A stretch of 64,000 nucleotides of DNA from contig DAHWUP010000001.1 of assembly GCA_027334565.1 (NCBI GenBank), positions 16,674 through 80,673 on the forward strand. Reading direction: 5' to 3'. The notes under the pieces were generated by a model. It saw nothing but the letters and a program-made list of their open reading frames with translations. It ran no database searches and had not been told where the DNA came from. This DNA is from Candidatus Levyibacteriota bacterium. Its GTDB lineage: Bacteria > Patescibacteriota > Microgenomatia > Levybacterales > UBA12049. Every line of letters begins with the position of its first letter. Position 1 is the first letter of the stretch. Both the position numbers and the translations under genes were made by a program. Shown here in pieces: positions 4,401 through 63,026 of the stretch.

Positions 4401-4667
4401 TTGAATATAATCGAAATGATGATCGGAAACGTCGATATCCAAACATTCGCATTGATTATAATACTCGTCGCCTGGACATTCGCGTGGAAAGGCGTTGCTT
4501 TATGGAGAGCGGCGAAACTCGGTCAAAAAAACTGGTTCATCGCTTTGATTATTTTAAGCATCCTCAACCTGTTGGGTCTGGTAGAAATCATTTATCTTTT
4601 CTTCTTTGCCAAGAAGAAATTAACCATCAAAGAAGTTAAATCCTGGTTTGTTAAACAAACCTCTTGA
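4401..4667 (+). CDS. small two-TM membrane protein (DUF5652-like?), the only plus-strand gene inside the minus-strand glycosylation operon
   Basis: 88-aa ORF with two hydrophobic helices and WRAAKLGQKNWF between them. Fills the 4354..4650 gap. Family name recalled from memory only. Confidence 0.45.
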   Translation: MNIIEMMIGNVDIQTFALIIILVAWTFAWKGVALWRAAKLGQKNWFIALIILSILNLLGLVEIIYLFFFAKKKLTIKEVKSWFVKQTS

Positions 4668-11023: not shown

Positions 11024-11024
11024 A

Positions 11025-16736: not shown

Positions 16737-18414
16737 ATACGATCCTGAATGCTTTTGTTCCGTCTTTTCTTAATATGAAGGAGTATTTTCTGTACCTTAA
16801 GGTCTTGTTGCTCGGGCAAGTCCCGTTATCGATGAACAACGCATTTTTTAATTTGGCAATTTTAGGAGATTTGTCTATCGAAGGACAAGCCGCAGTAGCA
16901 AATACAAATTTGCCAAAACCTCCGTCAGGCGGATCCTTAGGTGACCCTTCTGCCTGATATAGAGCCGGAGGATATTTCATGTAGAATAAGACCAAAGGAT
17001 AAATTCCACCAAATGATTTGGAAATGACGATATGATCATATTTGGAGTAATTTTCCTTGACCACATCCATCATATTCGCAAATCCTTCATACCTATACCA
17101 ATTCTGATGGATCTGGGATTGTATAAAATACTGAAAAGAAAAATAACTAAAATTACAAACAAGCAACAGAGCAAAAATACCTATGAATGCCTTATAAGTT
17201 ACGCCGGAAAATTTTTCGGCCAGTTTAATAAAACCGTATACGGCGATCATATCGATAATGGGGAACATGACTATCGCACGTTGTAAATTCGGAATATCAT
17301 CGGTCGTAAAAGCTGCGGTCACGGGTGCAAGCACAAGCCAGATCAAAGGGAGCTTGTGATAAATGTCTTTTGAAGACAAAAGGTAGTACGCCCCGAACAA
17401 AATAAAAGGCAATTCTATCAAATAGATCAACCCCATTGAAGGCACCTTGTACCAGATCGGCAATCCTCCCTGAATAAACAAAAATTGTCCCGAGAAATAA
17501 TCAAGATAATTAGAAACTAGCGCGAGGGAATAATCGATAACCTTGTTATGGACAACCCTTGTCACCAGCGCCGGAATGCCCATAACTCCGGATTCCCTTA
17601 TCTGTTCTGCCAAAACCAGCCCTACATGAGGATCGCCAAATATGTTTACCTCGTTGAATCTCCCCGTTCCTCCCGGAATAAGAAATACCAACGCAAACGA
17701 AACAAAAGAAAGAAGCACGAAAGAAACAACCAAAGACATTTTCAGCTTGGTACCGAATTTTTTCCAAACCGGATAAAGAAAACCGAGCGTCACAAGAAAA
17801 AGCAGGGGTACGAAAACCCTCGGGGTGTGATAAAAGAAAAAGCTTAAAGTGAGAAAAAATGAACCGATAAAAAAATACGAAGCTTTCTTGGTCTTTAATC
17901 CCAAAATAACGATCAGATAACCTGTGATTATCAAAAAAAGACAAACGATAGTTTCGGCACTTGCTCTGGATAAGACAACACTCCACGGCGCGACCGACAT
18001 CAGCAAAGCCGAAATAAGGCTGATTTTTTTATTTTTGAATAAAATCTGAGCCAGAAAGAAAAATGGAATTACGGAAAATGCACCGAATAATGCGCCCGGC
18101 AGGCGCGTTGCGAATACGGTTAAACCTAAAAATTTTATCGGTAAGATAGTTAAGTAATGGTATCCGGTAGGCCTCTCGTCACCGAACATATTGATATAGA
18201 GAGGAAAAGCGTGATTGCTTTCATCTTTTCCGGTCATAAGTAACGAATAACCGTTGTAACCAAGCGAAGCTTCATCAATATGAAAACCCAATGGCACGTT
18301 GCTCAGGTTATACAACCTGATAAATAATGCACCCAACAATATCAGTCCCAAAAAAACCGCCGTGAGCAACTGTTTTCTACTTATTCTTTTTAACATGCCA
18401 ACTAATGATACCAT
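16729..18414 (-). CDS. GT39/PMT-ArnT-like GT-C glycosyltransferase (tandem paralog)
   Basis: FHIDEASLGYNGYSLLMTGKDESNHAFPLYINMFGDERP. 561 aa polytopic. Confidence 0.75.
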   Translation of the reverse strand: MVSLVGMLKRISRKQLLTAVFLGLILLGALFIRLYNLSNVPLGFHIDEASLGYNGYSLLMTGKDESNHAFPLYINMFGDERPTGYHYLTILPIKFLGLTVFATRLPGALFGAFSVIPFFFLAQILFKNKKISLISALLMSVAPWSVVLSRASAETIVCLFLIITGYLIVILGLKTKKASYFFIGSFFLTLSFFFYHTPRVFVPLLFLVTLGFLYPVWKKFGTKLKMSLVVSFVLLSFVSFALVFLIPGGTGRFNEVNIFGDPHVGLVLAEQIRESGVMGIPALVTRVVHNKVIDYSLALVSNYLDYFSGQFLFIQGGLPIWYKVPSMGLIYLIELPFILFGAYYLLSSKDIYHKLPLIWLVLAPVTAAFTTDDIPNLQRAIVMFPIIDMIAVYGFIKLAEKFSGVTYKAFIGIFALLLVCNFSYFSFQYFIQSQIHQNWYRYEGFANMMDVVKENYSKYDHIVISKSFGGIYPLVLFYMKYPPALYQAEGSPKDPPDGGFGKFVFATAACPSIDKSPKIAKLKNALFIDNGTCPSNKTLRYRKYSFILRKDGTKAFRIVYD

Positions 18415-20758: not shown

Positions 20759-22278
20759 TTAGTTACCTGATAAACTCTGTAATAGTCATTGGTGTTTCCC
20801 TGTTTTACTTCAAAAATTAATTTAAGTGTCGGATAACCGGCAGGTAAAATTCTATGTTGGGGCTGGTAAAAAATAAAGTAAGTCGGCATGATTTTTGCCA
20901 TAGCCGATACTTCTTTGGGGAAAACGTCGACCGGCCAATAACCTTTTATAGTAATGTTTTTGTTCTGAACAAGGTAAAGCTCCATCGACTCGGGCATGAG
21001 GCCGAAAGTGCCTTCGGTTGCAATGAATATTTTATGATTTTGCGCCTGTTGCCTGAAAAACGCCACACTTTCTTTTACCCCCCATCCTGCCGCCCAACCG
21101 TCGATATACTGACTTTTATCCCTGTCGGCAATATGTGAATGGGTGGGATCGTTGGCGTACTGCAGCGAGATAAAACCGGGATATGCTACAAAAATTAGCG
21201 TAAGAACAATAAGGTATGCCAACTTCGGAAGGCCGAGTTTCAATCTTTTTTCGACAAAAGATATCAGGTATTCAAGTCCCCAGGCCGCAAGCGGAAGAAG
21301 CATCAAGCTCATTAAAAAAATAAAACGCGGATAAATGAGCCTTCCAAAAAGCGCCAAAGCCAGAAAGGGCAAAAGGAAAAAGATGATTAAAAGAAGTTTT
21401 TCTCTGAAAAATCTACCGATAAAAAATACTGCTATCAAGATCAAAACGATGTAGGAAAATGTCAGATATTGCAAAAGCCAGCTCGTCAAACCGCTTAGGT
21501 TACTGAATAAATAGGTAAAAGGGTGCGTAATCCATTGCGATACGGGGTAAACAAAAGTGGCGTCTTTGGCATCTATCATCGAATAAAGCGGAGATAGTCT
21601 TAAAATAGAATAAAGTCCGTAGGCGATAGCCGAAGAAAACCCGGCCAAGACGATATATCTTAATAACTTATTCCACATCCCTTTTTGCTTAAAATCGAAA
21701 ATAACCAGCAAAAAAGGCAAAAGGTACAGGCTGAAAAAATTTGAACTCTTGGTCAAGACTCCTGCGCCGATTACAAACCCTAAAGTGTACGAAACGTCCA
21801 ACCTTAATTTCCTGACCAGAAGGATTGAAAAATATAACCCCCAGACATAAAAAGTTGCCACCATGCTGTCATAAATCGCCATCCTGTCCAAAACTTGGGC
21901 AAAAGGATAAAAAATATAAAGCAGGGATGCCAAAAATGCGGTTGTTTTATTCTTAAATAGCTCATAGGTTAAAACGAACAGCCCGAGCATCGTCACAAAA
22001 CCGGTCAGAACGGAAACCAGTCTTCCGGCTACCAGAGGATCGTTTATGAATTTGATAAAAATCATCGCCACCCAAACGAACATCGGCTGTTTTCCGTCGG
22101 TCAAAGAAATGAATCTCCATGAAGAATCGCGCAGCGCTATTTGTGCCCACCTTAAATAAATCGCCTCATCGGTAAAAATAGGCAGGCTGGTAAGAAAAAC
22201 TAGCCGGAGAAAAAAATAAAATAAGGATAGAATTACGAATCCGGTTATTTCCCGTTTATACTTTGAAAGGAGTTTCAT
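20755..22278 (-). CDS. GT39/ArnT-like GT-C glycosyltransferase
   Basis: PIFTDEAIYLRWAQIALRD...DGKQPMFVW first-loop motif (ArnT-like DE..Y). 507 aa polytopic. Confidence 0.7.
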   Translation of the reverse strand: MKLLSKYKREITGFVILSLFYFFLRLVFLTSLPIFTDEAIYLRWAQIALRDSSWRFISLTDGKQPMFVWVAMIFIKFINDPLVAGRLVSVLTGFVTMLGLFVLTYELFKNKTTAFLASLLYIFYPFAQVLDRMAIYDSMVATFYVWGLYFSILLVRKLRLDVSYTLGFVIGAGVLTKSSNFFSLYLLPFLLVIFDFKQKGMWNKLLRYIVLAGFSSAIAYGLYSILRLSPLYSMIDAKDATFVYPVSQWITHPFTYLFSNLSGLTSWLLQYLTFSYIVLILIAVFFIGRFFREKLLLIIFFLLPFLALALFGRLIYPRFIFLMSLMLLPLAAWGLEYLISFVEKRLKLGLPKLAYLIVLTLIFVAYPGFISLQYANDPTHSHIADRDKSQYIDGWAAGWGVKESVAFFRQQAQNHKIFIATEGTFGLMPESMELYLVQNKNITIKGYWPVDVFPKEVSAMAKIMPTYFIFYQPQHRILPAGYPTLKLIFEVKQGNTNDYYRVYQVTK

Positions 22279-22309
22279 ACACAGATTATAGTTGAACTAA
22301 AGAAGCTAA

Positions 22310-23491
22310 TCAACGCTTTTGCAGTAACCTTTTTGAATACAGTATTATTAGCGGTAAAACAAATGTAGCCGCCAAGCCGATCGATTCAAACCGGAATAGT
22401 ACCCCGGGATACCCTTTGGCGTAATCGGTCATATAAACATAAGGGATGTAGACAGCTGCGGCAAAAATCGATGCAAAAAACGAAGTCACAAAAATGTATG
22501 ACTTCTTGGAGGTGAATGCCGCCATCGACAGGGGAAATATCAGATACCATGGCTGAAATGTAGTTCTTAGAGTTGCAATCAAAACGGTTAAAAGCGAGAG
22601 GCAGACAGCGGCGGTGAAAAATTTCTCCCAGCTTATTTTTCCTCCCCTCCTTAAGAAAAACTCCAGGATAAAAAATAGGGGCAATAATATCCCTGTTGAA
22701 AATTTGATGCCGATGGAAAAAATATTGCTAATCCATGATAACGCTGTTTTCTTTTGTAAAATAAGATAAATCGATAACAAAATGAAAAAAATCATCGGAA
22801 TGTCGTTATGCGCGGAAATTAACGATTCGATTAGAACCAGGGGGTTAAAAGCAAAAAATACGGTATTGAAAATTTTATGTTCAGGAAAGATCATTTCCGA
22901 AATTTTATAAATTAAATAACAACTGCCCAAAAAAGATAGTCCCATTAATAATTTAAAAAGGAAAAAGGTCGGAAGGAATATGCCGAGGCCTAAAAAAGAC
23001 AAAGGTACCGTTAAAATGAGCCAACTCGGTCCGTAGGGATAAGTTCTGTGCGTCCAACGCATGAAATTAAGCATCGGATCATTAAAAAAATTTCCGGCCG
23101 AATGGAGATACGGATTCTGCTGGTAATGAGTGATTATCCTGGCGTCGAAAATATAATTGAACAGATCGTAAGAAAAAGCGTTATAAGAAAACACCAAGGT
23201 CACAAAGCTTAAAACCGTAAGTATTTTTAGATTTCTAAGAGAAAGCTTACCATTTTTCGCAAGATTTAGAAAAACAAAATAAAAAATGAATAAGAATGTT
23301 AACAAGACCAAAAGGATCAGGGTTGATAACGGCCGTTGGAAAAATCCGATGTATTGCAACGCTTTTTCGGCGGTTTGGTAGACCGATATTTTCGAAAGCG
23401 TAAGATTTAAGTCTACCTGGGTGAACGAATAAACAAAAAAAGTTATCAGCAATAAAACGTAAGAGGAAAAAAGCAGTTTCAACTTACTCAT
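22310..23491 (-). CDS. polytopic membrane protein, possibly DUF2029/GT87-like GT-C mannosyltransferase
   Basis: 393 aa, about 10 TM. Loop motif HYQQNPYLHSAGNFFNDPMLNFMRWTHRTYPYGPSW (NPY...YPYGP) is reminiscent of DUF2029. Family assignment from memory only. Confidence 0.45.
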   Translation of the reverse strand: MSKLKLLFSSYVLLLITFFVYSFTQVDLNLTLSKISVYQTAEKALQYIGFFQRPLSTLILLVLLTFLFIFYFVFLNLAKNGKLSLRNLKILTVLSFVTLVFSYNAFSYDLFNYIFDARIITHYQQNPYLHSAGNFFNDPMLNFMRWTHRTYPYGPSWLILTVPLSFLGLGIFLPTFFLFKLLMGLSFLGSCYLIYKISEMIFPEHKIFNTVFFAFNPLVLIESLISAHNDIPMIFFILLSIYLILQKKTALSWISNIFSIGIKFSTGILLPLFFILEFFLRRGGKISWEKFFTAAVCLSLLTVLIATLRTTFQPWYLIFPLSMAAFTSKKSYIFVTSFFASIFAAAVYIPYVYMTDYAKGYPGVLFRFESIGLAATFVLPLIILYSKRLLQKR

Positions 23492-24261
23492 AGATTTTTA
23501 TATTTCCCTGTCAAATCGTTTATCCTGATACTAAATAAATCCTCCAAGCCTTCGAGCGAATCTTTTATCGGACTTACCCTTCTTGACTCTACGTATAGCC
23601 ATTCTACCGGGACCTCCTTGATCTTATAGCCGCTTTTTTGCGCCAACAACAGCAATTCGACGTCAAACCCTGCCTTTACCGAGGAGCCGGAAATGGTTTT
23701 ATACCCGTGATGTAATTTGGATAACCTCGAAAATAAATCGTCCGAGACGTCTTTCTTAAAAAGCTTGAAACCGCATTGGGTATCGGTGATCCCCGGCAAA
23801 CCGACAACGAGCTTTCTTAGAATTATCATCCCTTTTCCCATTAATGCTCTGGTCCAAGGCGCCCCCTCGCGATGGGAGTTTCGGCTGCCGATCACGATAT
23901 CAAAATCTTTAAGGTACGGTAACAGCCTATCTATCTCCTCGATCGGTGTAGCCTGGTCCATATCTGCAAAAAGAACATTTTGTCCTTTGGCCTTAAGCAT
24001 TCCAGCCGATATCGCTCCGGCTTTACCAGTATGGGAATTTTTAAAAAGTCTGAAATCGGGATTCTCTTTTGCGAATCTCTCAACGAATTCGATGCTCCCG
24101 TCGGTTGAGCCGTCGTCGACAACAATCACTTCATAAGCGAATTTCCGCTTATTGAGAAAATGTTGGACCTTATCCAAAACTCCCTTGTGGAGGTTGGCGA
24201 TTTCATTGTAAGACGGGATTACAATTGAAAGGTATGGCGGTTTCACAAATTGATTATACAA
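23488..24261 (-). CDS. polyprenol-phosphate glycosyltransferase (GT2, DPM1/GtrB-like)
   Basis: LSIVIPSYNEIANLHKGV...EVIVVDDGSTDGSIEF...NSHTGKAGAISAGMLKAKGQNVLFADMDQATP. First gene of the long minus-strand operon. Confidence 0.8.
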   Translation of the reverse strand: MYNQFVKPPYLSIVIPSYNEIANLHKGVLDKVQHFLNKRKFAYEVIVVDDGSTDGSIEFVERFAKENPDFRLFKNSHTGKAGAISAGMLKAKGQNVLFADMDQATPIEEIDRLLPYLKDFDIVIGSRNSHREGAPWTRALMGKGMIILRKLVVGLPGITDTQCGFKLFKKDVSDDLFSRLSKLHHGYKTISGSSVKAGFDVELLLLAQKSGYKIKEVPVEWLYVESRRVSPIKDSLEGLEDLFSIRINDLTGKYKNL

Positions 24262-40839: not shown

Positions 40840-40859
40840 ATTGTGATTATAATCACAAT
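40840..40859. promoter_or_regulatory. 20-bp perfect palindrome ATTGTGATTATAATCACAAT (with an embedded TATAAT) upstream of the giant adhesin gene
   Basis: Perfect dyad symmetry. A putative promoter, TTGCAT (40866..40871)-N17-TATATG, lies immediately downstream. Candidate operator. Confidence 0.6.
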
Positions 40860-40992: not shown

Positions 40993-43900
40993 ATGAAAAA
41001 ATCTTTCCTAAGAAAGATCATTAATATTTTAGGCACTCTTGCGATTATTTCCCAATCGCTTACTCCTTATGTCGTTTTGCTCCCGCAAACATCTTATGCC
41101 CAGGAAACTTCTCCTACTCCGACACCTACCCCGTCGCAAACCACCAACACCAATACCACTACTAATAACAGTACGATCCCAACCGTAACTCCGACACCTG
41201 CGGTATCCCAGACCACCGTTACGCCGACGCCGACGCCAGTAGGCACAACAACCGAAACCCCCACTCCGACACCGACAGATACGACAACGCTAACACCGAC
41301 ACCTTCGATTGATAACACCGCGACTCCATCACCGACACCAACGGGGCTTTCTCCTCCCGATAACGCGACTATATCCGCTTCACCTACTCCAGCTGTTTCA
41401 AGTACACCTACCCAAAATGATTTCCTGTCCACGCCTAGCGGAATTTCAAACACTTCAACAAGTTCAGGTAATATATCACCAAACCTAAATGAATCTTTAA
41501 ATGCCATAATTGTACATAACGTCAAGGCAAATACATTAAATCTTACAAATGTTATATCCCAAGGTAGCGCAACCCTAACAACCAATAAAACCGATTACTC
41601 ACCTACTGATACTGTGGTTATAAATGGAACAGGATTTTTACCAAAAACTACATATACTTTAGAAATCGTATCCAGCGACCCCCCGCCGGTTGACTTTACG
41701 ACTGCAGTAACATCGGATAATAAAGGTGACATTGTTTACGCATATCAATTAGACGGCAATTACCGGCCAAACTATACGGTTTATGCAAAAGATTCGTCTG
41801 GGCAAATAGTTGCGACAACAACATTTACTGACTCGGGGGTAACGGTAAGCGTATTATCATGGAATACAATAGGTGTCGACAGCAATAAGCCAGTTTCAAC
41901 AGGACCCCATCAATTTGTTATTCAAGCAAGAGTAACAAATAATACAGGGTCAAGCATCACAAATGTTTCGGCAATTTTTGCTTTAGGATCTGGAACTTCG
42001 TACATTACCACCTTAGGCCCATTGACACAAAATATAGGAACGCTTGCCAATAATTCGTCTGCCGATGTGTTTTTTCAGGTTGTTATAACTCCACCTCCTT
42101 CTCCAGACAGCCCTAGTAATGCGGTTTACGGTACTAGTAGAAACTATACCGTTACAGCAGATTACACTGATAATTCAGGGGCGCAAGTAGCATCTTATTC
42201 TAACACCCTAACTATATTAGGACTCAATTCCCAAAACAGGAATAGTATTTTATCTACTACCGTAAGCCCTTCTACAATTACCGTTGGGGGTACATTCACC
42301 GTAACTGTAACTTCAAAAACAACCGGCGGTGGAAATTTTACCAACGTATCGGTACCAATGATGTTTGATCCTAATGTTGCCCAAATGATAGGTGATGTAA
42401 CCACTTATCAAATCCCAGCGGGAACTACATTAGATTCATTTTATGACCAAAACGTTGGAGGAGATATACAATCCGTATTTACATTTAAAGCTCTGGCAGC
42501 AGGAACATCAAATTTTTACTGGCTAATTTATGATCAATCTGGAGGAAGTTACCATTATAATTCTGATTATGGACAGGCTATTATAATTACTGTAAAACCT
42601 GGTTTCGGGATAACAAAAACTCCCGCATCACAAACAGTAAACCCGGGCGGGACAGCAAGTTTTTCATCCGTTATTTCCAACAGTGGTAACGGTACGGGAA
42701 CAATTTCATCGATTATAGATACATTGCCTGTTGGTTTTTCTTATAAGACTGGCAGCACTACAGGAATAACTACAAATGATCCAGCGATTAACGGTCAACA
42801 ATTAACATGGACTGGCCCATGGACAATAACCCCTGGGAATTCAATTACCATTAATTATCAGGCAATTGCTTCAACTACTCCCGGAACTTACACCAATTCA
42901 ATTATTGCAAAAGATAGCAATAATAATACAGTAGGACCGGCAACAGCAGATATCATCATCCCTGCTCCCACGGGCTCAATAACCATAGTAAAAGATGCAC
43001 AACCTAATAGCTCCCAATCTTTTTCCTATACCACAACCGGAAACGGACTTTCCAATTTTTCCTTGGTTGATGATGGTATAAACAACACTTATTACACTAC
43101 ATTTAGTAACTTAACTTCAGGAAATTATTCAATAACAGAATCCCCGACAACAGGTTGGTCGCTGACAAACCTTAGTTGTTTGGATAATAATAGTAGTCAG
43201 TCCGTTGGAAGTATAACAAGTAGCACAGCCTCTTTATCGCTTACAGCTGGACAAAACGTAACATGTACCTATACAAACACAAGGGATACGGGAAATATAG
43301 TCATAAATAAAACAGCAATAGGAGGAGATGATATATTTGGATATGCCATAACAGGTCCTTCGGGATACAACTCTTCTCAATCAATAAAAACAAGTTCCGG
43401 AATCGGAACTACCGGAAATATTCCTGTAAATACCGGAAGCGGTTATTCTGTAATAGAAGATACACCACTACCTGCTGGATGGGTGCCGACAAGCGTAGTT
43501 TGTAATAATGGAACCCAAAACGTTTCAAACACCAATTTCAGCGTTTCTAAAGGACAAACAGTAACCTGTACCTTCACTAATACTAAACTCGCAATAATTA
43601 CTGTTGAAAAAAACATGGTTGGAGGCACAGGAACCTTTAACTTTACGGGTAACTTTTCGGGAAGCATAGATACCAATGGGGGAACGATAACAGAATCCGT
43701 TCTGCCCGGAACATATGTTGCAACAGAATCAGCTACAACAGGTTGGGATTTAACCGATATAAGCTGTACCGGAGCCGGCAGTGGTTCGGGAAACTTGGGC
43801 AATTCAACAGCAACATTTAATGTAGCTGCAGGACAAAATGAAACTTGCACATTTACCAACACGAAATATGGTTCAATAACAGTTGTTAAAACCACCACAA

Positions 43901-46900
43901 ACGGCGATGGAACGTTTGACTACACGACAACAGGCGGACTAACTCCATCAACATTCAGCATAACCACAACGGGTGGAAACGGTTCTTTCCCTTATAACAG
44001 CGTATTGCCTGGAAATTACTCGATAACCGAGCTTACTGATGCAAGCTGGCAATTTAACTCATTAAGCTGTATTTCGGGCAACACAAACATTGCAACGTAT
44101 AGCGGGACCACTGCTTTCTTCCCTTTCGCAGCCGGTGAGAATGTTACCTGTACATATGGAAACACAGGTCTTGGGACTTTAATAATAGATAAAAATACAA
44201 CCGGCGGAGACGGCAGTTTTGGCTATACGGTAAACGGCGCAAGTTCTTCCGCACAAACTATTAATACAAGCGGCGGAGCCGGTACAACGGGCCCGCTAAC
44301 CGTAATCGCGGGAAATTACACAGTAACCGAAGCTAGCCAAAGCGGATGGATGCAAAATCCCGGATCATCTTGTTATGATCCATCGACAAGAACAACATAT
44401 TCACCATTTAATGTAACTGTAGGTATTGGAAAAATTGTCACGTGTACATTTAATAATACAAAACTTTCGACTATTAAAATTGTTAAAGATACAAATGGCG
44501 GAAACGGAACTTTTCCTTTCACAACAACAGGCAGTTTAACTCCTTCAACATTTAATATTGACACTATAAAAACTAACCTACAAGAATATGATAATGTAAC
44601 TCCCGGTTCGTATTCAATTTCCGAAACCTCACAAAGCGGATGGGATTTAACAGCACTTTCATGTACATCTTTAAATGGCAATTCAACGACATCAACCAAT
44701 CAATCAACGGGCACGGCTACGATAACCAACCTTGCAGCAGGAGACACAGTCATCTGTACATTTACGAATACTGCTAAGGGTTCATTAACAGTTAATAAGA
44801 TCACTATCCCAACGGGTATTACTACGACATTTAACATTAACGCAACCGGTTCTGGTACAATAACCGGCGGAGGGGCTGGAACAGTTTCAATAACAACCCC
44901 AAAGACTTACGAGGTAACTCCCGGAACATATTATGTTTCCGAAACACCGGCAACCGGATGGACGGAAGATACCAGCAATTGTCAGGGGGTAATCGTTGCC
45001 GCAGGGAAAAACTCAAGCTGTACCATTACAAATACAGAATTATCCAACTTGACTATCGTTAAAAATACAGTTGGGGGTGACGGGACTTTCGATTTTATAG
45101 CAACGGGGTCAGGGCTTAGTAATTTTAGCTTAACAACAGTGAGCGGGATAAAGTCTAAAACTTTCTCCAATATAAATTCGGGAACATATTCTGTAGCAGA
45201 AGACTCTCAAACAGGATGGATATCAGATACTTCAAACCCGCCAACTTGTACCAATGGCGATAATCCTTCATCTATAACTCTAAACCCGGGCGATAATGTG
45301 ACTTGCACTTTTACAAATGATAAATTACCTACGTTAACGGTTACAAAAACACTGTTACCAAATAGTGATTTAGGGAAATTTAACTTATTGATCGACAGTA
45401 ATATTGACGCAACAAATGTCGGTAATGGAGGGACAACCGGTACGCAAATAGTCAGCATAGGTTCGCATACAGTTTCTGAAACTGCCGGAACTTCAACCAA
45501 TCTTTCGGATTACAATGCCATAATCGGTGGAGATTGTGCTCCTGACGGCTCTATAAATTTGGCTGCAGGAGATATCAAAACTTGCACCATAACAAATACA
45601 AGATATGGCTCAATAACTATTGTCAAAAATACTATTGGGGCGGACGGGACTTTCGGCTTTATTGCAACCGGGTCCGGAGTATCAAACTTTGATATATCAA
45701 CAATATCCAACACAGGTTCTCAAACTTTCCCCAAACTATCACCCGGTACATTCTCATTCTCTGAAAATACACCTGCAAGTTGGGTGGAAGGATCAGTTTC
45801 TTGCAAAGATAATTCAACAGGAGGAACTGTTGGTACTGTTGTATCGGGACTTGCGTCATTCAGCCTAACTGCAGGACAAAACATAATCTGTACATTTAAT
45901 AATACCGCGCAGGGAACATTGATAATAGATAAAACAGCATTAGGCGGAGACTCAACTTTTGATTATACTGTTTCGGGTCCAACCAATATGTCACCCAGTA
46001 TTACTACCACAAGCGGTTCTGGAACAACTGGCGGAAAGGTAGTTATAGCAGGAACATACGACATTGCTGAATCTTCACAGGCGGGGTGGGTACAAAAAAA
46101 AGCAACTTGTGACAATGGAGATAATCCATCAAATGTTAACGTAGGCGTTGGAGATACAGTCACCTGCACATTTACTAATACTAAACTTGCCAATCTTACA
46201 ATAGTAAAAAACACAGTCGGCGGGGATGGGACTTTTGACTTTACCACAACCGGCTCGGGACTTAGTAATTTTGACTTAACAACTTCAAACGCAACAGCTT
46301 CTGCACCATTTGCCGATCTTAATCCTGGTTCTTATTCTGTTTCAGAAACTTCACAGCCGGGTTGGACATTAACCTCATCCAGCTGCACGAATGGTGATAA
46401 CCCGTCCAATATCACTTTAAACCCAGGAGATAATGTAATTTGCTATTTTGAAAATACAAAATTAGGAAGTATTACTGTTACCAAATATACCGACCCGGGT
46501 ACAGCCCAAACTTTTAACTTTACTCTAACAGGACTAGCAACCGGTTCGGCAACTACAAATATAGGAGATGGACAATCTTATACTTTTAATCAATTACCTC
46601 CTTCTGTTTCTTATTCCTTATTGGAAAATCCAACCACAGGATGGGATTTAACAGCGCTAAAATGTATTTCCACCAACAACAACTCAACTTTTTCTACGGA
46701 TATACCGACAAGTACAGTAACAATATCTAACCTTACACCAGGAGACAACGTAACCTGCTCATTCGGCAACACCGAAAGTGGGAATGTAATTATTACAAAA
46801 TATAACGACGTTTTGGGACAAGGAGTTTTCGATCAGACTGACCCGACGCTTTCGGGATGGACGATGAATCTGGCAAGCTATTCGGGAGGAATGTCTCAAA

Positions 46901-47733
46901 TAACCGATACAAACGGCATTGCAACATTTAATAATATTGCTCCGACTTCCTATACATTAACCGAAAACCAGCAAAACGGTTGGCAATTGACTGATATGTA
47001 TTGTTCTGGACAGGAAGAAGGGCCTATATTCGGCCCAACATCAACCAGCTACCCATTATTTGTCCAGCCCGGACAAACAATCTATTGCAGAGTCTTAAAC
47101 CACAACCTAATTCCTATCCTTACAATCACAAAAACAAACGATGCGGGCGATAATGTTCTAGGTCCGGGTAGCACGGTCAACTATACAATTACCATAACTG
47201 CAACGCAATCCGCGGCGCAAAATGTAACCGTTACCGACCTTCTTCCCGACGGGTTCCACTATAATTCCGGTTCATGGCAGGCTCTTTTGAACGGAAATCC
47301 TGTTTCCGTTCCTGAACCCACTTATCATTCACCAGGCACCTGGACTCTTGGCAACATGAACGTTGGGGATACTTACACCCTTAAATACTCGGTGACAATT
47401 GACGGCTCTGAAGCAACCGGAACATATTACGATAATGCCTGGGGACAGGGATATTCGGGTTCGGGCAACGTGGTATTAGCAAACGCAACAACCGACCCGG
47501 CACAAGGCTTTATCAATGACCCGACTTTCGTGGGAACCCAGGTTGTAATTGCTGCTTCTAATAATCAGGGCATCAACTATTCTAATCAAGTTACCCAAGA
47601 GGTTCTGGGAGCATCGACTTACCTTCCGGCTACCGGAGAAAATACACTTTGGGTTGTCCTGGCAACCTTACTCGGACTTTCAGGCTTGGGTATGCTATTA
47701 TACGGATTTAAATTAAGGAGAAATAATAAATAA
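40993..47733 (+). CDS. giant (2246-aa) sortase-anchored surface protein
   Basis: Start chosen at MKKSFLRKIINILGTLAIISQSLTPYVVLLPQTSYAQE (signal peptide); the upstream 50-codon extension in the ORF track is rejected. It has a signal peptide, a mucin-like Thr/Pro linker, Ig-like domains, two DUF11 domains and 14 CnaB/SdrD-B-like repeats. The C-terminus is LPATG (47623..47637), a hydrophobic helix and a KLRRNNK tail. Confidence 0.85.
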   Translation: MKKSFLRKIINILGTLAIISQSLTPYVVLLPQTSYAQETSPTPTPTPSQTTNTNTTTNNSTIPTVTPTPAVSQTTVTPTPTPVGTTTETPTPTPTDTTTLTPTPSIDNTATPSPTPTGLSPPDNATISASPTPAVSSTPTQNDFLSTPSGISNTSTSSGNISPNLNESLNAIIVHNVKANTLNLTNVISQGSATLTTNKTDYSPTDTVVINGTGFLPKTTYTLEIVSSDPPPVDFTTAVTSDNKGDIVYAYQLDGNYRPNYTVYAKDSSGQIVATTTFTDSGVTVSVLSWNTIGVDSNKPVSTGPHQFVIQARVTNNTGSSITNVSAIFALGSGTSYITTLGPLTQNIGTLANNSSADVFFQVVITPPPSPDSPSNAVYGTSRNYTVTADYTDNSGAQVASYSNTLTILGLNSQNRNSILSTTVSPSTITVGGTFTVTVTSKTTGGGNFTNVSVPMMFDPNVAQMIGDVTTYQIPAGTTLDSFYDQNVGGDIQSVFTFKALAAGTSNFYWLIYDQSGGSYHYNSDYGQAIIITVKPGFGITKTPASQTVNPGGTASFSSVISNSGNGTGTISSIIDTLPVGFSYKTGSTTGITTNDPAINGQQLTWTGPWTITPGNSITINYQAIASTTPGTYTNSIIAKDSNNNTVGPATADIIIPAPTGSITIVKDAQPNSSQSFSYTTTGNGLSNFSLVDDGINNTYYTTFSNLTSGNYSITESPTTGWSLTNLSCLDNNSSQSVGSITSSTASLSLTAGQNVTCTYTNTRDTGNIVINKTAIGGDDIFGYAITGPSGYNSSQSIKTSSGIGTTGNIPVNTGSGYSVIEDTPLPAGWVPTSVVCNNGTQNVSNTNFSVSKGQTVTCTFTNTKLAIITVEKNMVGGTGTFNFTGNFSGSIDTNGGTITESVLPGTYVATESATTGWDLTDISCTGAGSGSGNLGNSTATFNVAAGQNETCTFTNTKYGSITVVKTTTNGDGTFDYTTTGGLTPSTFSITTTGGNGSFPYNSVLPGNYSITELTDASWQFNSLSCISGNTNIATYSGTTAFFPFAAGENVTCTYGNTGLGTLIIDKNTTGGDGSFGYTVNGASSSAQTINTSGGAGTTGPLTVIAGNYTVTEASQSGWMQNPGSSCYDPSTRTTYSPFNVTVGIGKIVTCTFNNTKLSTIKIVKDTNGGNGTFPFTTTGSLTPSTFNIDTIKTNLQEYDNVTPGSYSISETSQSGWDLTALSCTSLNGNSTTSTNQSTGTATITNLAAGDTVICTFTNTAKGSLTVNKITIPTGITTTFNINATGSGTITGGGAGTVSITTPKTYEVTPGTYYVSETPATGWTEDTSNCQGVIVAAGKNSSCTITNTELSNLTIVKNTVGGDGTFDFIATGSGLSNFSLTTVSGIKSKTFSNINSGTYSVAEDSQTGWISDTSNPPTCTNGDNPSSITLNPGDNVTCTFTNDKLPTLTVTKTLLPNSDLGKFNLLIDSNIDATNVGNGGTTGTQIVSIGSHTVSETAGTSTNLSDYNAIIGGDCAPDGSINLAAGDIKTCTITNTRYGSITIVKNTIGADGTFGFIATGSGVSNFDISTISNTGSQTFPKLSPGTFSFSENTPASWVEGSVSCKDNSTGGTVGTVVSGLASFSLTAGQNIICTFNNTAQGTLIIDKTALGGDSTFDYTVSGPTNMSPSITTTSGSGTTGGKVVIAGTYDIAESSQAGWVQKKATCDNGDNPSNVNVGVGDTVTCTFTNTKLANLTIVKNTVGGDGTFDFTTTGSGLSNFDLTTSNATASAPFADLNPGSYSVSETSQPGWTLTSSSCTNGDNPSNITLNPGDNVICYFENTKLGSITVTKYTDPGTAQTFNFTLTGLATGSATTNIGDGQSYTFNQLPPSVSYSLLENPTTGWDLTALKCISTNNNSTFSTDIPTSTVTISNLTPGDNVTCSFGNTESGNVIITKYNDVLGQGVFDQTDPTLSGWTMNLASYSGGMSQITDTNGIATFNNIAPTSYTLTENQQNGWQLTDMYCSGQEEGPIFGPTSTSYPLFVQPGQTIYCRVLNHNLIPILTITKTNDAGDNVLGPGSTVNYTITITATQSAAQNVTVTDLLPDGFHYNSGSWQALLNGNPVSVPEPTYHSPGTWTLGNMNVGDTYTLKYSVTIDGSEATGTYYDNAWGQGYSGSGNVVLANATTDPAQGFINDPTFVGTQVVIAASNNQGINYSNQVTQEVLGASTYLPATGENTLWVVLATLLGLSGLGMLLYGFKLRRNNK
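41100..41440 (+). repeat. low-complexity mucin-like Thr/Pro-rich linker within the giant protein
   Basis: ETSPTPTPTPSQTTNTNTTTNNSTIPTVTPTPAVSQTTVTPTPTPVGTTTETPTPTPTDTTTLTPTPSIDNTATPSPTPTG... Confidence 0.8.
42973..47115 (+). repeat. array of 14 tandem ~98-aa CnaB/SdrD-B-like repeats with a conserved Lys/Glu/Asn triad
   Basis: Each repeat reads roughly xxTIVK.T.GGDGTFDF...G....SYSVSE....GW.L....C.....NP..ITL..GDNVTCTFTNTK. Repeats 8, 10 and 12 share nearly identical N-terminal halves (NLTIVKNTVGGDGTFDF..TGSGLSNF.LTT). Confidence 0.75.
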
Positions 47734-47738
47734 TTATT

Positions 47739-48689
47739 ATGAATAAACTGTTTAAATCATTGTTAATGTCTTTTGCGGCACTCTTCCTTTTTTCAGGGGT
47801 AAGTTTTGCTTCAACTTCGGTAAGGCTGCAGCAGCCGCAAACACCCACCAACCAGAATGCGTTCAACATCACTTTTGTTGCTTTGGATACCAACTCGTCC
47901 CAGGTTGTAACTGTTCAGTGCCAAAAACAGGGTCCGGGTGATTCAAATCCTGTGAATTTCGGCTCACCTATCACGCTTTCTGCCGGCGGCAATACCAACG
48001 TTTGCCAGGTCGGAAACGGACTATTGAATCAAAACGGCACTTACCAGTTTGACGTAATCGCCTACGGATCAAGCACTACAACCAGCAATACCGTCAACGT
48101 AGACTTTAATACCGATGGACCGGGCACACCCGGCAATTACAATAAAACCAAACCCGACAACTGCACTTACGAGATAACCTTTAGAACGGCCGACGACAAT
48201 GGGAAAACCGTCAAGGTGGTCTTGTACCGTTCGTCCAATCAGAACTTTAGCTTAGACAACGGAACCCAGGTAAACCAGGTTAGTATCGGTTCGAACACCG
48301 ACGGCTCGATGACCGACAACATCAGCCCAAACTGCAATACCAACTATTACTACGCGATCAGGGCTTTTGATAAATACGGAAACGGCTCGGGAGCAACCGG
48401 AGACAGTTCAACATCTACAACAATCATCAGTCCGACAGTTACGCAGCAGGAAGGAGCAATAGCCGGCGGTACCGCGGGAAATGTGCTTGGAGCCGAAGCC
48501 GGTGGACAAGGACAAGTTTTGGGTACGGAAAGTGCAAAACCGACCCAAACCCCTGCAAAAGTAACGGGACAAAATCCTGTTTCAAACGCAGTAAACTGGG
48601 TACTTACCCACAAAAAGGTCAGCTTGCTGGTTCTAATAATTTTGGCAGCGATTGCATACTTTCTTTACCGCAGATACTATAAAAAGTAA
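47739..48689 (+). CDS. secreted Ig/Fn3-like protein with a C-terminal membrane anchor
   Basis: Signal peptide MNKLFKSLLMSFAALFLFSGVSFAS, two beta-rich domains (...NYYYAIRAFDKYGNGSG), then a Gly/Ala-rich stretch and a C-terminal TM with an RRYYKK tail. No canonical LPXTG (nearest is PAKVTG). Confidence 0.6.
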   Translation: MNKLFKSLLMSFAALFLFSGVSFASTSVRLQQPQTPTNQNAFNITFVALDTNSSQVVTVQCQKQGPGDSNPVNFGSPITLSAGGNTNVCQVGNGLLNQNGTYQFDVIAYGSSTTTSNTVNVDFNTDGPGTPGNYNKTKPDNCTYEITFRTADDNGKTVKVVLYRSSNQNFSLDNGTQVNQVSIGSNTDGSMTDNISPNCNTNYYYAIRAFDKYGNGSGATGDSSTSTTIISPTVTQQEGAIAGGTAGNVLGAEAGGQGQVLGTESAKPTQTPAKVTGQNPVSNAVNWVLTHKKVSLLVLIILAAIAYFLYRRYYKK

Positions 48690-48698
48690 AATAGAATC

Positions 48699-49289
48699 GT
48701 GAAACTTCTCTCAAGAATTCTAATAACAATTGGGTTACTTTTGATTTTTTCTTCGGTTGTTCTATTTGTGTACATTTTCGCACCGGTGGCAAAAGTCGAA
48801 CTAAATTATGACCTTAACCGGCCCAGGGCAAACATCAATCAGATTACGCCTGTGGACAAAAATTTCGACATCGTCATTCCCAAGATAGGCGCCAACGCCA
48901 GGATAATTCCAAACGTAGACCCATTCAATTCAAACGTTTACGAACTGGCACTTTCCAAAGGCGTCGCGCAGGCCAAAGGCTCCGCCTTCCCCAACCAAAC
49001 CGGCAATATGTTCCTGTTTTCCCATTCCTCGGCCAACCTTTTGGAAGCTACGCGTTTCAATTCGATATTTTATCTACTATCAAAGTTAAATAAAGCAGAT
49101 GTAATTTATATTTATTACAATAATACAAGATACAAATACGTTGTGTCGGGAACCAAACTTGTTGACCCTTCCGACGTTTCTTATTTAAATCCGAAATCCA
49201 GCGTTAAACAGCTGACTTTGATGACTTGCTGGCCTGCAGGTACTAATTACAAAAGACTGATTGTAATTGCAAAATCTCTAAGTAAATAA
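48699..49289 (+). CDS. sortase (GTG start)
   Basis: N-terminal TM anchor, His region FLFSHSS, catalytic TLxTC motif QLTLMTCWP (Cys codon near 49228), conserved Arg in YKRLIVIA. 196 aa. Confidence 0.7.
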   Translation: MKLLSRILITIGLLLIFSSVVLFVYIFAPVAKVELNYDLNRPRANINQITPVDKNFDIVIPKIGANARIIPNVDPFNSNVYELALSKGVAQAKGSAFPNQTGNMFLFSHSSANLLEATRFNSIFYLLSKLNKADVIYIYYNNTRYKYVVSGTKLVDPSDVSYLNPKSSVKQLTLMTCWPAGTNYKRLIVIAKSLSK

Positions 49290-61271: not shown

Positions 61272-63026
61272 TCAATAGCCCAATTTTGTTATCAGGATGA
61301 TATGATCGACGTTATATGCCGGATCCGCGATCGCATGGATTACATAATTTGAGAGCCTGGCATCGGTAGTTGCCACCAGCTGTTGTAAAACAGGTGTCGT
61401 TTGGTTGGTTACGTCTATCGCGGTGATATCGCTTTTTGAGATAGCACTGATGCAGTTTTCCAGCGAAACGGGTTGAAAAGTCGCAAGGTTAAGGCCGGGT
61501 TTGTCGAAAAATTGAAAACCCAGTATATCGCTGTCCCAGAGACTTTGAGAAAGCATCACCTTTGCTCCCCGGGTTTGATTGAGATAATTTATCAGCGTCT
61601 GCTGCGCCGCATTATGAAAATAATAATTCCAGTAGTAATTCTGAGGATTCACTTTAAGTTGGTTAAAATACCAGTTCCAGTTTAAAAAACAGCTAATTAA
61701 AACTATGGCACTTAAAGCTATCGTTATCTCTTTTACATGAGTTTTTTTACCTTTTACATAAATGGCAAAAAGTCCGAATGCAGCCGCAAACAATATCACT
61801 GCTATCCAGCCGGAAATTCTTAAAGCATGAGGATGTCCCAATCCGTAATAATGAAACTCGGAGATCCGTTCGATCGAAAAAATATCGCTTACAAAAGGGG
61901 GGAACATCAACAAGAATGTAACCCAAAACAAACCTCTCTTTCTAACATACAGGTAGATAAAACCGATTGCGGCCAGGACGATTGTTATAGGCCCAAAAGG
62001 CGGGATACCCGCAGGATTATGTTCCGGATTCGGATCGCCCGTGATTGGGAACGTGCCTGTTCGGTATATGTTGCCCCAAAATTCTTTGACGAATTCGGTC
62101 GGGCTATAATGCTGTGCAAAAATCGAGATGTCGGATGCCCTTGACCAAAGCTGCTGCGGATACAAGAACTGAAAACTGACCAGAGCCGTTCCGGCGACAA
62201 AAATGATTCCAAAAAACAACAGCACCCTGGACAAATACTTTTTGGGGTTATCTTTTCTGATCAGATAGATCGTGATTATCATAATCGCAATGGCAAAAGG
62301 CCGGAAGTTTAAATATGTATATAAACCGCCGACCAAAGAAAGCCCCACCGCCAAAAGATAATATAAATTTTTTGTTTTATGGTATAAAGCCAAAAATATG
62401 GCCGTTAAGACCTGGAAAAACAACGAAGGGATAGGCTCATAAGCAAGACGTGAAAGAACGATTTGCGTATATTGAAATGCCATCAACAGGGCTCCTAAAA
62501 TCGATATCGGAACAGGTAAATAAAGCCGAAGCAAAATATAAAAAATGCCGACGGTCAAAGCGCCCATCACGGCGATCGGAAGCCTTAAAGCCAAAACCGT
62601 ATGCCCCAAAAGCTCGACGCTTGTACCGATGGCGTAAGTAACCGGCATCGAGTAAGGATGATCAAGCACAAAAGGCGGTAACTGGTTTTGTTTGATAAAA
62701 CTTACGGCATAGGTTCCGACGGCGATCTCGTCGCCCCAAAGCCCCGGAGATAACTCATCTATCTTATATAATCTTATCCAAAGAGACAGAACTATTAAAA
62801 GAAAGACCAGAACGATTTCTTTGTTATGAGCTTTGATCGTGCCGAAAATATCCGTTTTGGCAAAAATAATTACCCAAAGGATAATGATAGTCGCAAAATG
62901 GATGAACATCAAATAGGTCGGGTAAGATCTTGTGTACAAAAACAAAAAGAACAAAAAGGTGTTAAAAACGGCAATCAAACCGATTATTTTAAAGGAGATT
63001 GACAAGCCAAATATTTTGGATAACAT
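61272..63026 (-). CDS. GT39/ArnT-like GT-C glycosyltransferase
   Basis: First-loop motif GLWGDEIAVGTYAVSFIKQNQLPPFVLDHPYSMPV. 584 aa polytopic. Confidence 0.7.
   Translation of the reverse strand: MLSKIFGLSISFKIIGLIAVFNTFLFFLFLYTRSYPTYLMFIHFATIIILWVIIFAKTDIFGTIKAHNKEIVLVFLLIVLSLWIRLYKIDELSPGLWGDEIAVGTYAVSFIKQNQLPPFVLDHPYSMPVTYAIGTSVELLGHTVLALRLPIAVMGALTVGIFYILLRLYLPVPISILGALLMAFQYTQIVLSRLAYEPIPSLFFQVLTAIFLALYHKTKNLYYLLAVGLSLVGGLYTYLNFRPFAIAIMIITIYLIRKDNPKKYLSRVLLFFGIIFVAGTALVSFQFLYPQQLWSRASDISIFAQHYSPTEFVKEFWGNIYRTGTFPITGDPNPEHNPAGIPPFGPITIVLAAIGFIYLYVRKRGLFWVTFLLMFPPFVSDIFSIERISEFHYYGLGHPHALRISGWIAVILFAAAFGLFAIYVKGKKTHVKEITIALSAIVLISCFLNWNWYFNQLKVNPQNYYWNYYFHNAAQQTLINYLNQTRGAKVMLSQSLWDSDILGFQFFDKPGLNLATFQPVSLENCISAISKSDITAIDVTNQTTPVLQQLVATTDARLSNYVIHAIADPAYNVDHIILITKLGY

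Follow-up and report, generated by a model that had tools for sequence, protein, structure and literature searches.

A Thr/Pro-rich disordered tail on a sortase-anchored adhesin of a Microgenomates bacterium and its possible glycosylation by GT-C enzymes

Does a Thr/Pro-rich stretch at the beginning of a large surface protein carry sugars, and if so, are they attached by glycosyltransferases encoded elsewhere on the same piece of DNA? These questions are raised by a 64,000-nucleotide stretch (the window) from Candidatus Levyibacteriota. A preliminary description of this DNA had noted a mucin-like region at 41100-41440, directly after the signal peptide of a large exported adhesin, and had proposed it, on the model of actinobacterial protein O-mannosylation, as a candidate substrate of five GT39 enzymes using a donor from two DPM1-like synthases. 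The region and the exported adhesin are confirmed below. The actinobacterial framing is not; the host belongs to the Patescibacteria (Microgenomates) and has a GC content of about 42%.

The adhesin and its N-terminal tail

The adhesin gene and the two genes that follow it contain these features:

40993..47733, forward strand: gene for an adhesin-like, sortase-anchored surface protein of 2246 aa (translation and Pfam)
40993..41100, forward strand: signal peptide, aa 1-36, with a likely signal peptidase I site SYA↓QE (sequence, AF2, relatives)
41101..41442, forward strand: Thr/Pro/Ser-rich disordered region, aa 37-150 (composition, shuffle test, AF2, relatives)
41488..41835, forward strand: conserved N-terminal Ig-like beta-sandwich domain, aa 166-281 (alignment, AF2)
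47623..47733, forward strand: cell-wall sorting signal, consisting of LPATG, a hydrophobic segment, a KLRRNNK tail and the stop codon (sequence)
47739..48689, forward strand: conserved operon partner of 316 aa with a signal peptide, an Ig-like middle, a low-complexity stretch and a C-terminal membrane anchor (translation)
48699..49289, forward strand: sortase (Pfam Sortase E 5e-23; NCBIfam sortase family above cut-off)

The program-made list of reading frames opens the adhesin at a GTG (40843). We favour the ATG at 40993 as the likely start codon, because the signal peptide that results (MKKSFLRK...LLPQTSYA↓QE) is kept in relatives, whose signal peptides have a comparable ...[VA]YA↓QE ending; in the AF2 model of the N-terminus a helix spans aa 2-22. 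Pfam recognizes 11 SpaA_4, two SpaA_2 and two DUF11 stretches within the protein, and LPATG at aa 2211 is followed by the hydrophobic segment and then by KLRRNNK. With a signal peptide, a sorting signal and a sortase gene (966 nt downstream) all present, the protein is, as judged from its sequence, a sortase-anchored (LPXTG) surface protein. In surveys of loci with flanks of up to 10 kb, 52 of 80 loci have a sortase homolog no more than 10 kb from the adhesin domain, and 49 of 80 have a homolog of the 316-aa partner at such a distance. A promoter and terminator scan of 40.6-50 kb returned background level only.

The stretch at aa 37-150 (114 aa) contains 40 Thr, 24 Pro and 13 Ser residues (35%, 21% and 11%; P+T+S 68%), together with six Asp/Glu and no Lys/Arg, and continues in a Ser/Asn-rich form to about aa 165 (nt 41487). 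TP dipeptides occur 18 times in aa 36-150 versus 13 times in the remaining 2096 aa. The highest T+P fraction in any 40-aa segment of the adhesin reaches 0.725; when the whole protein was shuffled 5000 times, this peak averaged 0.44 and never exceeded 0.60. AF2 assigns no secondary structure to aa 28-164 (pLDDT 35-50), and the Thr/Pro stretch is predicted to be disordered. When held against the definition of a mucin-like (PTS) domain, the region shows the P/T/S content and the disordered extracellular segment but lacks tandem repeats; it is mucin-like by composition.

In a six-frame scan of the window, this was the sole T/P-rich stretch within a real gene. (One weaker T/P-rich stretch lies in an out-of-frame ORF inside an MgtE-like gene.) That the stretch is of low complexity by chance, or the product of a wrongly chosen frame, is excluded by the continuity of the frame with Pfam-supported domains and by conservation of the stretch in 72 of 80 relatives. 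An origin by repeat expansion is also ruled out, since TRF found no tandem repeat in the Thr/Pro-coding DNA beyond a 17-bp ACGCCG run. The absence of a longer DNA repeat and the full codon range (the four Thr codons and the four Pro codons all occur) argue that the bias reflects protein composition rather than recent slippage. The antisense ORF at 41094-41585 is a by-product of the Thr/Pro composition.

The Ig-like domain that follows the tail is well defined, with AF2 pLDDT values of 83-93 over about aa 210-280 and the invariant motifs DYxPTD ... YQLDGxYRPxY ... TFTD in its alignment; a Foldseek search with the N-terminal model returned generic Ig-like matches only (neocarzinostatin, adhesin repeats) and no specific assignment. 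The domain has 101 relatives in species-representative genomes, and those with names are Microgenomates or other Patescibacteria. The 72 Microgenomates loci with a Thr/Pro-type tail ahead of this same domain are those in which the tail has at least 30 aa, and its median length is 110 aa. Median T+P+S is 53% in these tails and 27% in the remainder of each protein, and median K+R is 0.8% versus 4.6%. The sequence of the adhesin tail, however, is only 11-41% identical to that of its relatives, whereas the neighbouring Ig-like domain is 42-64% identical. What is kept, therefore, is the position of the tail, its length of about 110 aa, its T/P/S bias and its near-zero Lys/Arg content, but not its sequence, which points to a bristle or spacer role; most likely the tail is an extended, hydrophilic and protease-resistant structure of this kind.

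A glycan-assembly operon without linkage to the adhesin

The candidate enzymes are encoded on the opposite strand, all but one of them within a single operon whose genes are given here in transcription order:

4651..24261, reverse strand: 14-gene glycan-assembly operon (Pfam and NCBIfam scans; block kept in relatives)
23488-24261, reverse strand: gene 1, GT2
22310-23491, reverse strand: gene 2, MptA_B-type GT-C
20755-22278, reverse strand: gene 3, PMT_2
18377-20758, reverse strand: gene 4, YfhO (PF09586 E 1e-18)
16729-18414, reverse strand: gene 5, PMT_2
15084-16736, reverse strand: gene 6, PMT_2
13435-15087, reverse strand: gene 7, GT-C paralog
11723-13447, reverse strand: gene 8, PMT_2/PTPS_related/YfhO-like
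11025-11726, reverse strand: gene 9, GT2
9569-11023, reverse strand: gene 10, Wzx flippase
8649-9572, 7736-8659 and 6968-7735, reverse strand: genes 11-13, three GT2s
4651-6984, reverse strand: gene 14, YfhO (PF09586 E 5e-24)
61272..63026, reverse strand: isolated fifth PMT_2-type GT-C, 584 aa (Pfam PMT_2 E 3.5e-9)

The operon thus encodes seven to eight GT-Cs, five GT2s and a Wzx protein, and the window as a whole has nine GT-Cs: five PMT_2, two YfhO, one of the MptA_B family and one GT-C paralog without a family assignment. A 391-aa ORF by Lon (34518-35693), suspected of being another GT-C from the weak PMT_2 flag of its ortholog in locus L085, is an MFS transporter.

The GT2 (GT-A) domain PF00535 is found in the two small GT2s with E values of 2e-28 (11025-11726) and 4e-25 (23488-24261). 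Their top NCBIfam matches are AglJ, ArnC, PgfS, PpgS and dolichyl-P hexose transferase, with 45-75 bits against cut-offs of 325-529 bits. Both genes abut or overlap a GT-C gene, a pairing that is kept in relatives, and their products are likely polyprenol-P-sugar synthases. The two synthases of the preliminary description are present as small GT2s that resemble this class most closely; the DPM1-like label is a loose one.

The adhesin gene and the operon are encoded on opposite strands and separated by 16.7 kb that hold unrelated genes. Of 80 loci with the adhesin domain, only 2 have a GT-C no more than 10 kb away from it, and the domain is found in none of the 80 loci anchored on the 507-aa GT-C, in which T/P/S-rich ORFs number only five in 0.99 Mb. 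A conserved linkage between the adhesin and the operon is absent. Given the strands, the distance, the intervening genes and these two surveys, the sharing of one window, from which an enzyme-substrate link had been drawn, is no evidence for such a pair.

Routes to a glycosylated tail and their rivals

The explanation that we prefer, at a rough probability of 0.45, is that the region is the disordered tail of a SpaA-repeat adhesin, acting as a bristle or spacer, and that it is probably O-glycosylated by a GT-C. For the modification taken by itself, the balance tips somewhat towards a tail that is O-glycosylated outside the membrane by a polyprenol-P-sugar-dependent GT-C. Sec export and cleavage of the signal peptide would place the tail at the wall-distal end of the protein, directly before the Ig-like tip domain; a small GT2 synthase would make the sugar-lipid donor; and a GT-C, whether PMT_2/ArnT-like or YfhO-type, would transfer the sugar from the lipid donor to Thr/Ser residues of the tail. 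The main effect may be protection against proteolysis. In favour of this route, the window encodes suitable machinery, with nine GT-Cs, two synthase-like GT2s beside GT-C genes, and D37-E38 kept in the first external loop of all 39 orthologs of the 507-aa GT-C. Against glycosylation, Pro-rich acidic linkers can withstand proteases without sugar. A literature search on glycoproteins and O-glycosylation in Patescibacteria found nothing relevant, and it is by analogy with other bacteria that we infer the glycosylation, and with it an enzyme, a sugar and a role.

One such precedent is the (Pro-Thr)n segment of Cellulomonas fimi glycanases, which is reportedly glycosylated in the native host and thereby shielded from proteolysis. 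Pro-Thr box linkers of these glycanases are mentioned in PMC6151902 and PMC8209791; the likeness is that of a (Pro-Thr)n low-complexity segment on a secreted protein of a Gram-positive organism, but the C. fimi segment, unlike the adhesin tail, is an interdomain enzyme linker from a high-GC actinobacterium. In Caldicellulosiruptor bescii, Cbes_1864, a 556-aa CAZy GT39 protein whose best template is ArnT, is needed to glycosylate linkers in which Thr and Pro alternate, and proteolysis follows when it is lost (PMC6151902). By that description, Cbes_1864 and its substrate CelA resemble the present case in several ways: a low-GC monoderm, a GT-C of roughly 550 aa with an ArnT template, and, as acceptor, a Thr/Pro disordered segment of a large secreted multidomain protein. 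However, the Cbes_1864 gene lies near its substrate genes and its role has been shown by deletion, whereas the candidate GT-Cs of the window are unlinked to the adhesin; in addition, the CelA acceptor is an interdomain linker and that of the adhesin an N-terminal tail. Taken with the mycobacterial and streptococcal systems discussed below, such precedents make the adhesin a plausible O-glycosylation target, as had been proposed, but nothing in the sequence ties the nearby glycosyltransferases to it.

A serious contender, at somewhat less than even odds, is that the tail serves as a spacer or bristle without glycans and that the GT-C/GT2/Wzx operon makes or decorates an envelope glycopolymer (a wall polysaccharide or lipoglycan) unrelated to the adhesin. 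With its Wzx protein, three cytoplasmic GT2s, an MptA_B-type enzyme and serial GT-Cs, the operon looks like a system for wall or lipid glycopolymer assembly. Mycobacterial LM, LAM and arabinogalactan are assembled by several GT-Cs in series (MptA/MptB/Emb/Aft), and the operon has the same pattern of several GT-Cs, an MptA_B member, synthase-like GT2s and a Wzx-type flippase; if it does serve a glycopolymer, these systems are its closest match, with matches at the family level only. We know of no acceptor polymer in Patescibacteria. The operon is also a self-contained, conserved block: in the 80 metagenome loci centred on the 507-aa GT-C, where the adhesin domain is absent nearby, MptA_B is a neighbour of this GT-C in 73 loci, the two synthase-like GT2s are neighbours in 64-65, GT-Cs of the PTPS_related type in 60, a YfhO protein in 48 and a Wzx protein in 35. 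The 507-aa GT-C itself is unusually conserved (its top 120 clusters are 60-71% identical), which suggests a housekeeping role in the envelope. Pairs of a GT2 and a GT-C also decorate streptococcal rhamnopolysaccharide, but streptococcal enzymes of the same families serve polysaccharide and protein acceptors alike (PMC12041528). Moreover, the T/P or S/T disordered regions that have been examined in bacteria with GT-C O-glycosyltransferases were glycosylated, which speaks for the preferred reading of a modified tail.

If the tail is modified, which GT-C would do so? By analogy with streptococci, a YfhO-type enzyme has as strong a claim as one of the PMT_2 type. There, GtrB/PgfS acts with YfhO-type PgtC2/PgfM1 to glycosylate extracytoplasmic Ser/Thr-rich disordered regions; the targets include LPXTG adhesins, which the glycan shields from proteolysis (PMC12041528). 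These Pgf and GtrB/PgtC2 systems are the sole GT-C systems shown experimentally to act on LPXTG adhesins in monoderms (PMC12041528), and the likeness extends to a monoderm cell, sortase-anchored adhesins with Thr-rich regions, and the YfhO proteins and PgfS-like GT2s of the window. Both YfhO proteins are full-length, one matches the C-termini of PgfM1 and PgfM2 weakly, and both small GT2s have PgfS among their top matches, but every NCBIfam score is far below its cut-off and the similarity is at the family level only. In streptococci the target regions are rich in Ser/Thr, not in Thr/Pro, and the pgf operon sits in a cluster with its adhesin genes (pgf-cnm), as the operon of the window does not; in Bacillus and Listeria, the YfhO enzymes have teichoic acids as their acceptors (PMC12041528). 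That the tail is glycosylated by a YfhO-family enzyme to the exclusion of the PMT_2 type is, on balance, unlikely.

It is quite improbable that bona fide GT39 PMTs of the window mannosylate the tail with polyprenol-P-mannose from a DPM1-like synthase. The PMT of Mycobacterium tuberculosis favours proline-rich Ser/Thr sites (PMC12331936), and with Ppm1 it shares with the window an extracytoplasmic GT-C, an acidic first-loop residue and a polyprenol-P-sugar donor (PMC12331936), as well as sites in disordered regions of Sec-exported proteins and an enzyme gene unlinked to its substrates. It recognizes its acceptor through a WW-like hairpin in external loop 4 and an Rx2Y motif in loop 5 (PMC12331936). 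The pair D37-E38 of the 507-aa GT-C, which lies in this first loop, is invariant in 39 orthologs, and DE also occupies the corresponding position in four of six paralogs, but acidic residues in this loop are common to many GT-C families and do not discriminate for PMT. The five enzymes described as GT39s are indeed five ORFs with weak matches to Pfam PMT_2 (PF13231); the label does not follow them further. None of the six PMT_2-type proteins matches PMT_4TMC (PF16192) at E values up to 10, and PF02366 is marginal in one of them (20755-22278; 24.5 bits against a gathering cut-off of 22.7, over profile positions 61-199 of 245 only) and gives no match in the other five even at E up to 10. Nor are PMTs structurally the closest. 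The AF2 model of the 507-aa GT-C has a soluble alpha/beta C-terminal domain with five strands (aa 385-507), and ArnT, AglB and ALG12 are at least as close to it as PMTs; for the best GT-C candidate, ArnT and oligosaccharyltransferases score as high as PMTs or higher, consistent with a generic GT-C fold. Only this fold comparison is informative, since searches of PDB chains gave no match with two single GT-C sequences (E up to 1) or with a 39-sequence GT-C profile (E up to 10). Mannose is likewise unsupported as the sugar, and the host is not an actinobacterium.

Finally, surface proteins of Gram-positive bacteria commonly have Pro/Thr-rich segments that span the wall, and a free 115-aa N-terminal tail without a terminal domain is an odd design, but an uncleaved N-terminal hydrophobic segment that would make the region a wall-spanning tether or a transient pro-region is very improbable, given the canonical small-x-small motif after a helix-breaking Pro (LLPQTSYA↓QE), the comparable endings in relatives, and an adhesin that already has its C-terminal LPATG anchor and an adjacent sortase.

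Implications for Patescibacteria

As it stands, the argument is of a textbook kind, joining a Pro/Thr linker to GT-Cs in one genome without genomic linkage. The value of the analysis lies in three corrections: the host lineage, the recognition of the enzymes as generic GT-Cs in an autonomous glycan operon, and the place of YfhO as an equally valid candidate. Most Patescibacteria remain uncultivated, and it is probably through their surface proteins that they attach to host cells. It is conceivable, though doubtful, that Microgenomates possess a general extracytoplasmic O-glycosylation system, in which the multi-GT-C operon glycosylates adhesin tails and so gives these probably episymbiotic cells a mucin-like tip for attachment; if true, Patescibacteria would thereby gain their first described system of protein glycosylation. 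Glycosylation of the tail would, for its part, give the first sign that these bacteria O-glycosylate proteins.

The Thr/Pro-rich tail of the adhesin

The window has a GC content of about 42%. In the automatic ORF listing the adhesin ORF begins at a GTG at 40843; the ATG at 40993 yields a classical signal peptide, MKKSFLRK-IINILGTLAIISQSL-TPYVVLLPQTSYA/QE, and because relatives have a signal peptide of similar kind, the gene is taken to start there:

40993-47733, plus strand: adhesin gene (2246 aa), with the reported Thr/Pro span inside one long ORF
47739-48689, plus strand, 5 nt behind the adhesin gene: 316-aa exported protein with a membrane anchor at its C-terminus
48699-49289, plus strand, 9 nt behind the gene of this 316-aa partner: sortase

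Pfam matches in the adhesin comprise 11 stretches of SpaA_4, two of SpaA_2, and two of DUF11, and its C-terminal end has LPATG followed by a hydrophobic segment and KLRRNNK. The adhesin is a sortase-anchored surface protein; consequently, the Thr/Pro tail at its N-terminus lies at the end farthest from the wall. The 316-aa partner also contains a low-complexity stretch rich in S/T/G/A/Q (about aa 220-285), directly ahead of its C-terminal anchor, which lacks LPXTG; by analogy with streptococci, this stretch is possibly a further glycosylation target.

The Thr/Pro-rich linker that the preliminary description placed after the signal peptide is confirmed by composition, shuffles, and predicted disorder. 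This tail (aa 37-150, nt 41101-41442, 114 aa) contains 40 Thr, 24 Pro, 13 Ser, 6 Asp/Glu, and no Lys/Arg, and the reported span (aa 36-150) has 18 TP dipeptides compared with 13 in the other 2096 aa. The T+P fraction per 40-aa window peaks at 0.725 in the adhesin; when the whole protein is shuffled (n = 5000), the peak has a mean of 0.44 and a maximum of 0.60. In a six-frame scan of the window, the tail is the sole such stretch within a real gene. (The scan also gave one weaker T/P stretch, in an out-of-frame ORF within the MgtE-like gene, and an antisense ORF of 163 aa, 41094-41585 on the minus strand, runs across the Thr/Pro region and is most likely an artefact of composition bias.) No DNA tandem repeat above 17 bp was found in the tail region, and every Thr codon and every Pro codon occurs there. 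AlphaFold2 predicts aa 28-164 to be without secondary structure (pLDDT 35-50) and, behind the tail, a confident beta-sandwich (pLDDT 83-93 at about aa 210-280).

Conservation of the tail among relatives

The Ig-like domain behind the tail (aa 166-281, window 41488-41835), for which no Pfam family matched in the window protein, was aligned; DYxPTD, YQLDGxYRPxY, and TFTD are among its invariant residues. A scan of species-representative genomes with the resulting alignment yielded 101 relatives, and loci were fetched for 80, of which 72 have a tail of 30 aa or more.

Tails compared with the rest of the same proteins (medians, 72 of 80 loci)
Tail length: 110 aa
T+P+S: 53% in the tail, 27% in the rest
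K+R: 0.8% in the tail, 4.6% in the rest
D+E: 16% in the tail, 12% in the rest

Compared with five relatives, the window tail is 11-41% identical (values inflated by low complexity) and the adjacent Ig-like domain 42-64% identical, and the same head of signal peptide, tail, and Ig-like domain stands in front of C-terminal repeats whose architectures differ widely. Selection therefore keeps the position, length, and composition of the tail, not its sequence. It is a real feature of the protein, disordered and conserved.

The head recurs across Microgenomates (loci L003-L082, fetched from relatives) as a signal peptide, an acidic T/P/S tail, and an Ig-like domain of about 113 aa with the invariant order DYxPTD...YQLDGxYRPxY...TFTD. 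Behind it lie giant surface proteins with SpaA repeats, bacterial Ig, or cadherin-like parts, and its usual companions are the sortase and the 316-aa partner.

Relatives of the adhesin domain come from Daviesbacteria, Levybacteria, Gottesmanbacteria, Woesebacteria, and Roizmanbacteria. Lineage-named orthologs of a 507-aa GT-C protein of the window belong for the most part to Levybacteria or other Patescibacteria, and an identical GT-C gene is present on GCA_021832785.1. These lineages place the window in the Patescibacteria (Microgenomates) and not in the Actinobacteria. Many adhesin-domain loci carry the title 'uncultured Gammaproteobacteria' or 'Pseudomonadales', with one labelled Bathyarchaeia and one Actinomycetota, the domain being otherwise found under Microgenomates or Patescibacteria names; the odd titles probably reflect placeholder or wrong taxonomy.

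The glycosyltransferases and their genomic context

Nine GT-C proteins are encoded in the window, all on the minus strand, together with two small GT2s:

4651-6984, minus: YfhO protein
11025-11726 and 23488-24261, minus: small GT2s; best NCBIfam matches are the polyprenol-P-sugar synthases AglJ, ArnC, PgfS, and PpgS
11723-13447, minus: PMT_2 ORF, also matching YfhO and PTPS_related
13435-15087, minus: divergent GT-C paralog
15084-16736, minus: PMT_2 ORF
16729-18414, minus: PMT_2 ORF
18377-20758, minus: YfhO protein
20755-22278, minus: PMT_2 ORF (507-aa GT-C)
22310-23491, minus: MptA_B family protein
61272-63026, minus: PMT_2 ORF, the isolated fifth

The five PMT_2 (PF13231) matches score 28-47 bits. 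Fourteen abutting or overlapping minus-strand genes, from 24261 down to 4651, form a GT operon whose single gap is 18 nt (between 22310 and 22278); it encodes seven GT-Cs (two YfhO, four PMT_2/PTPS_related-type, one MptA_B-type), five GT2s, and a Wzx flippase. This gene block is kept on Levybacteria-like contigs, and orthologs of the 507-aa GT-C show 60-71% identity over more than 100 clusters. A 692-aa protein (2275-4353, minus) has a polytopic N-terminal region of about 390 aa without a Pfam match, followed by MecA_N and PBP dimerisation domains, with no transpeptidase domain detected; the gene next to it is a GT4.

The GT operon and the adhesin are separated by unrelated genes, some on each strand: two MFS transporters, two HlyD proteins, MarR, a phosphoribosyltransferase, DsbD-like, a P-type ATPase, Lon, MgtE-like, and Nramp. 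Among 80 loci anchored on the adhesin domain (1.28 Mb in all, with flanks of up to 10 kb), 52 carry a sortase and 49 the 316-aa partner; just 2 have a GT-C, and no single GT2 query found a homolog in more than 3. In the reciprocal survey, which took the 507-aa GT-C as anchor in 80 metagenome loci (0.99 Mb), the neighbours included MptA_B (73/80), the two synthase-like GT2s (64-65/80), PTPS_related-type GT-Cs (60/80), YfhO (48/80), and Wzx (35/80); the adhesin domain was near the GT-C in none of these 80 loci, and the 0.99 Mb held only five T/P/S-rich ORFs. In the close relative L085 the order adhesin-Nramp-MgtE-Lon-GT operon is kept, most simply as synteny inherited between near relatives; in L083, another relative's locus, mobile-element genes occupy the corresponding flank of the GT operon, and the adhesin is absent from the 10 kb fetched on each side. 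It follows that the shared window, once offered as support for an enzyme-substrate link, is no evidence for one. The adhesin, 316-aa partner, and sortase are the adhesin's conserved functional unit, and the GT operon forms a unit of its own.

Is the tail glycosylated?

Several precedents make glycosylation of the tail by a GT-C mechanistically reasonable. In C. bescii, the alternating Thr-Pro linkers in CelA need Cbes_1864 to become glycosylated, a 556-aa enzyme of CAZy GT39 with ArnT as its best structural template; when the enzyme is missing, CelA is cleaved (PMC6151902). In M. tuberculosis, PMT acts preferentially on Ser/Thr sites rich in proline (PMC12331936). Streptococci glycosylate disordered, Ser/Thr-rich extracytoplasmic regions with a GT2 (GtrB or PgfS) plus a YfhO-family GT-C (PgtC2 or PgfM1); Cnm, WapA, CnaB, and CbpA, all LPXTG adhesins, are among the targets, and the glycan protects them against proteolysis (PMC12041528). 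The YfhO proteins of the window are candidates on a par with the PMT_2 proteins. However, the same GT-C and GT2 families also serve non-protein acceptors, and related Glc-P-Und donors also supply wall-polysaccharide decoration (PMC12041528). That the tail is unglycosylated and the GT operon serves an envelope glycopolymer is nearly as likely as a glycosylated tail.

The 507-aa GT-C is a generic GT-C, and its fold is uninformative on whether the acceptor is lipid, glycan, or protein. It alone reaches the PF02366 cut-off (24.5 vs 22.7 bits, with partial profile coverage). PMT_4TMC was not detected in the PMT_2-type proteins even at E up to 10, nor did a profile of 39 orthologs of the 507-aa GT-C match PDB sequences at E up to 10. 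Its AlphaFold2 model (pLDDT 82, pTM 0.84) has a C-terminal soluble alpha/beta domain instead of four membrane helices, and Foldseek ranks ArnT first (E 4e-8, TM 0.6), with yeast Pmt2 at rank 23 and Pmt1 at rank 25. D37-E38 in the first external loop is invariant among orthologs, as would be expected for an active GT-C. (Orthologs are named "glycosyltransferase family 39 protein" by NCBI and "ArnT-like" by JGI.) The "five GT39s" of the preliminary description are the PMT_2 subset of the nine GT-Cs, and for the one that was modelled the closest solved structures are not PMTs. "DPM1-like" is acceptable for the small GT2s at family level, their best NCBIfam matches all scoring far under cut-offs, but nothing about them points to mannose. 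A GH130 (beta-mannoside phosphorylase family) protein of 622 aa with two matched stretches (57871-59739, minus), near the isolated fifth PMT_2 gene, is the sole hint of mannose chemistry within the window. Mannosylation by GT39 enzymes, as originally proposed, is unlikely.

The best single guess is that the tail is O-glycosylated by some GT-C (probability roughly 0.45, a figure that overlaps with those for the GT39/mannose and YfhO versions, which are sub-cases and not additive). The system does not depart from known kinds.
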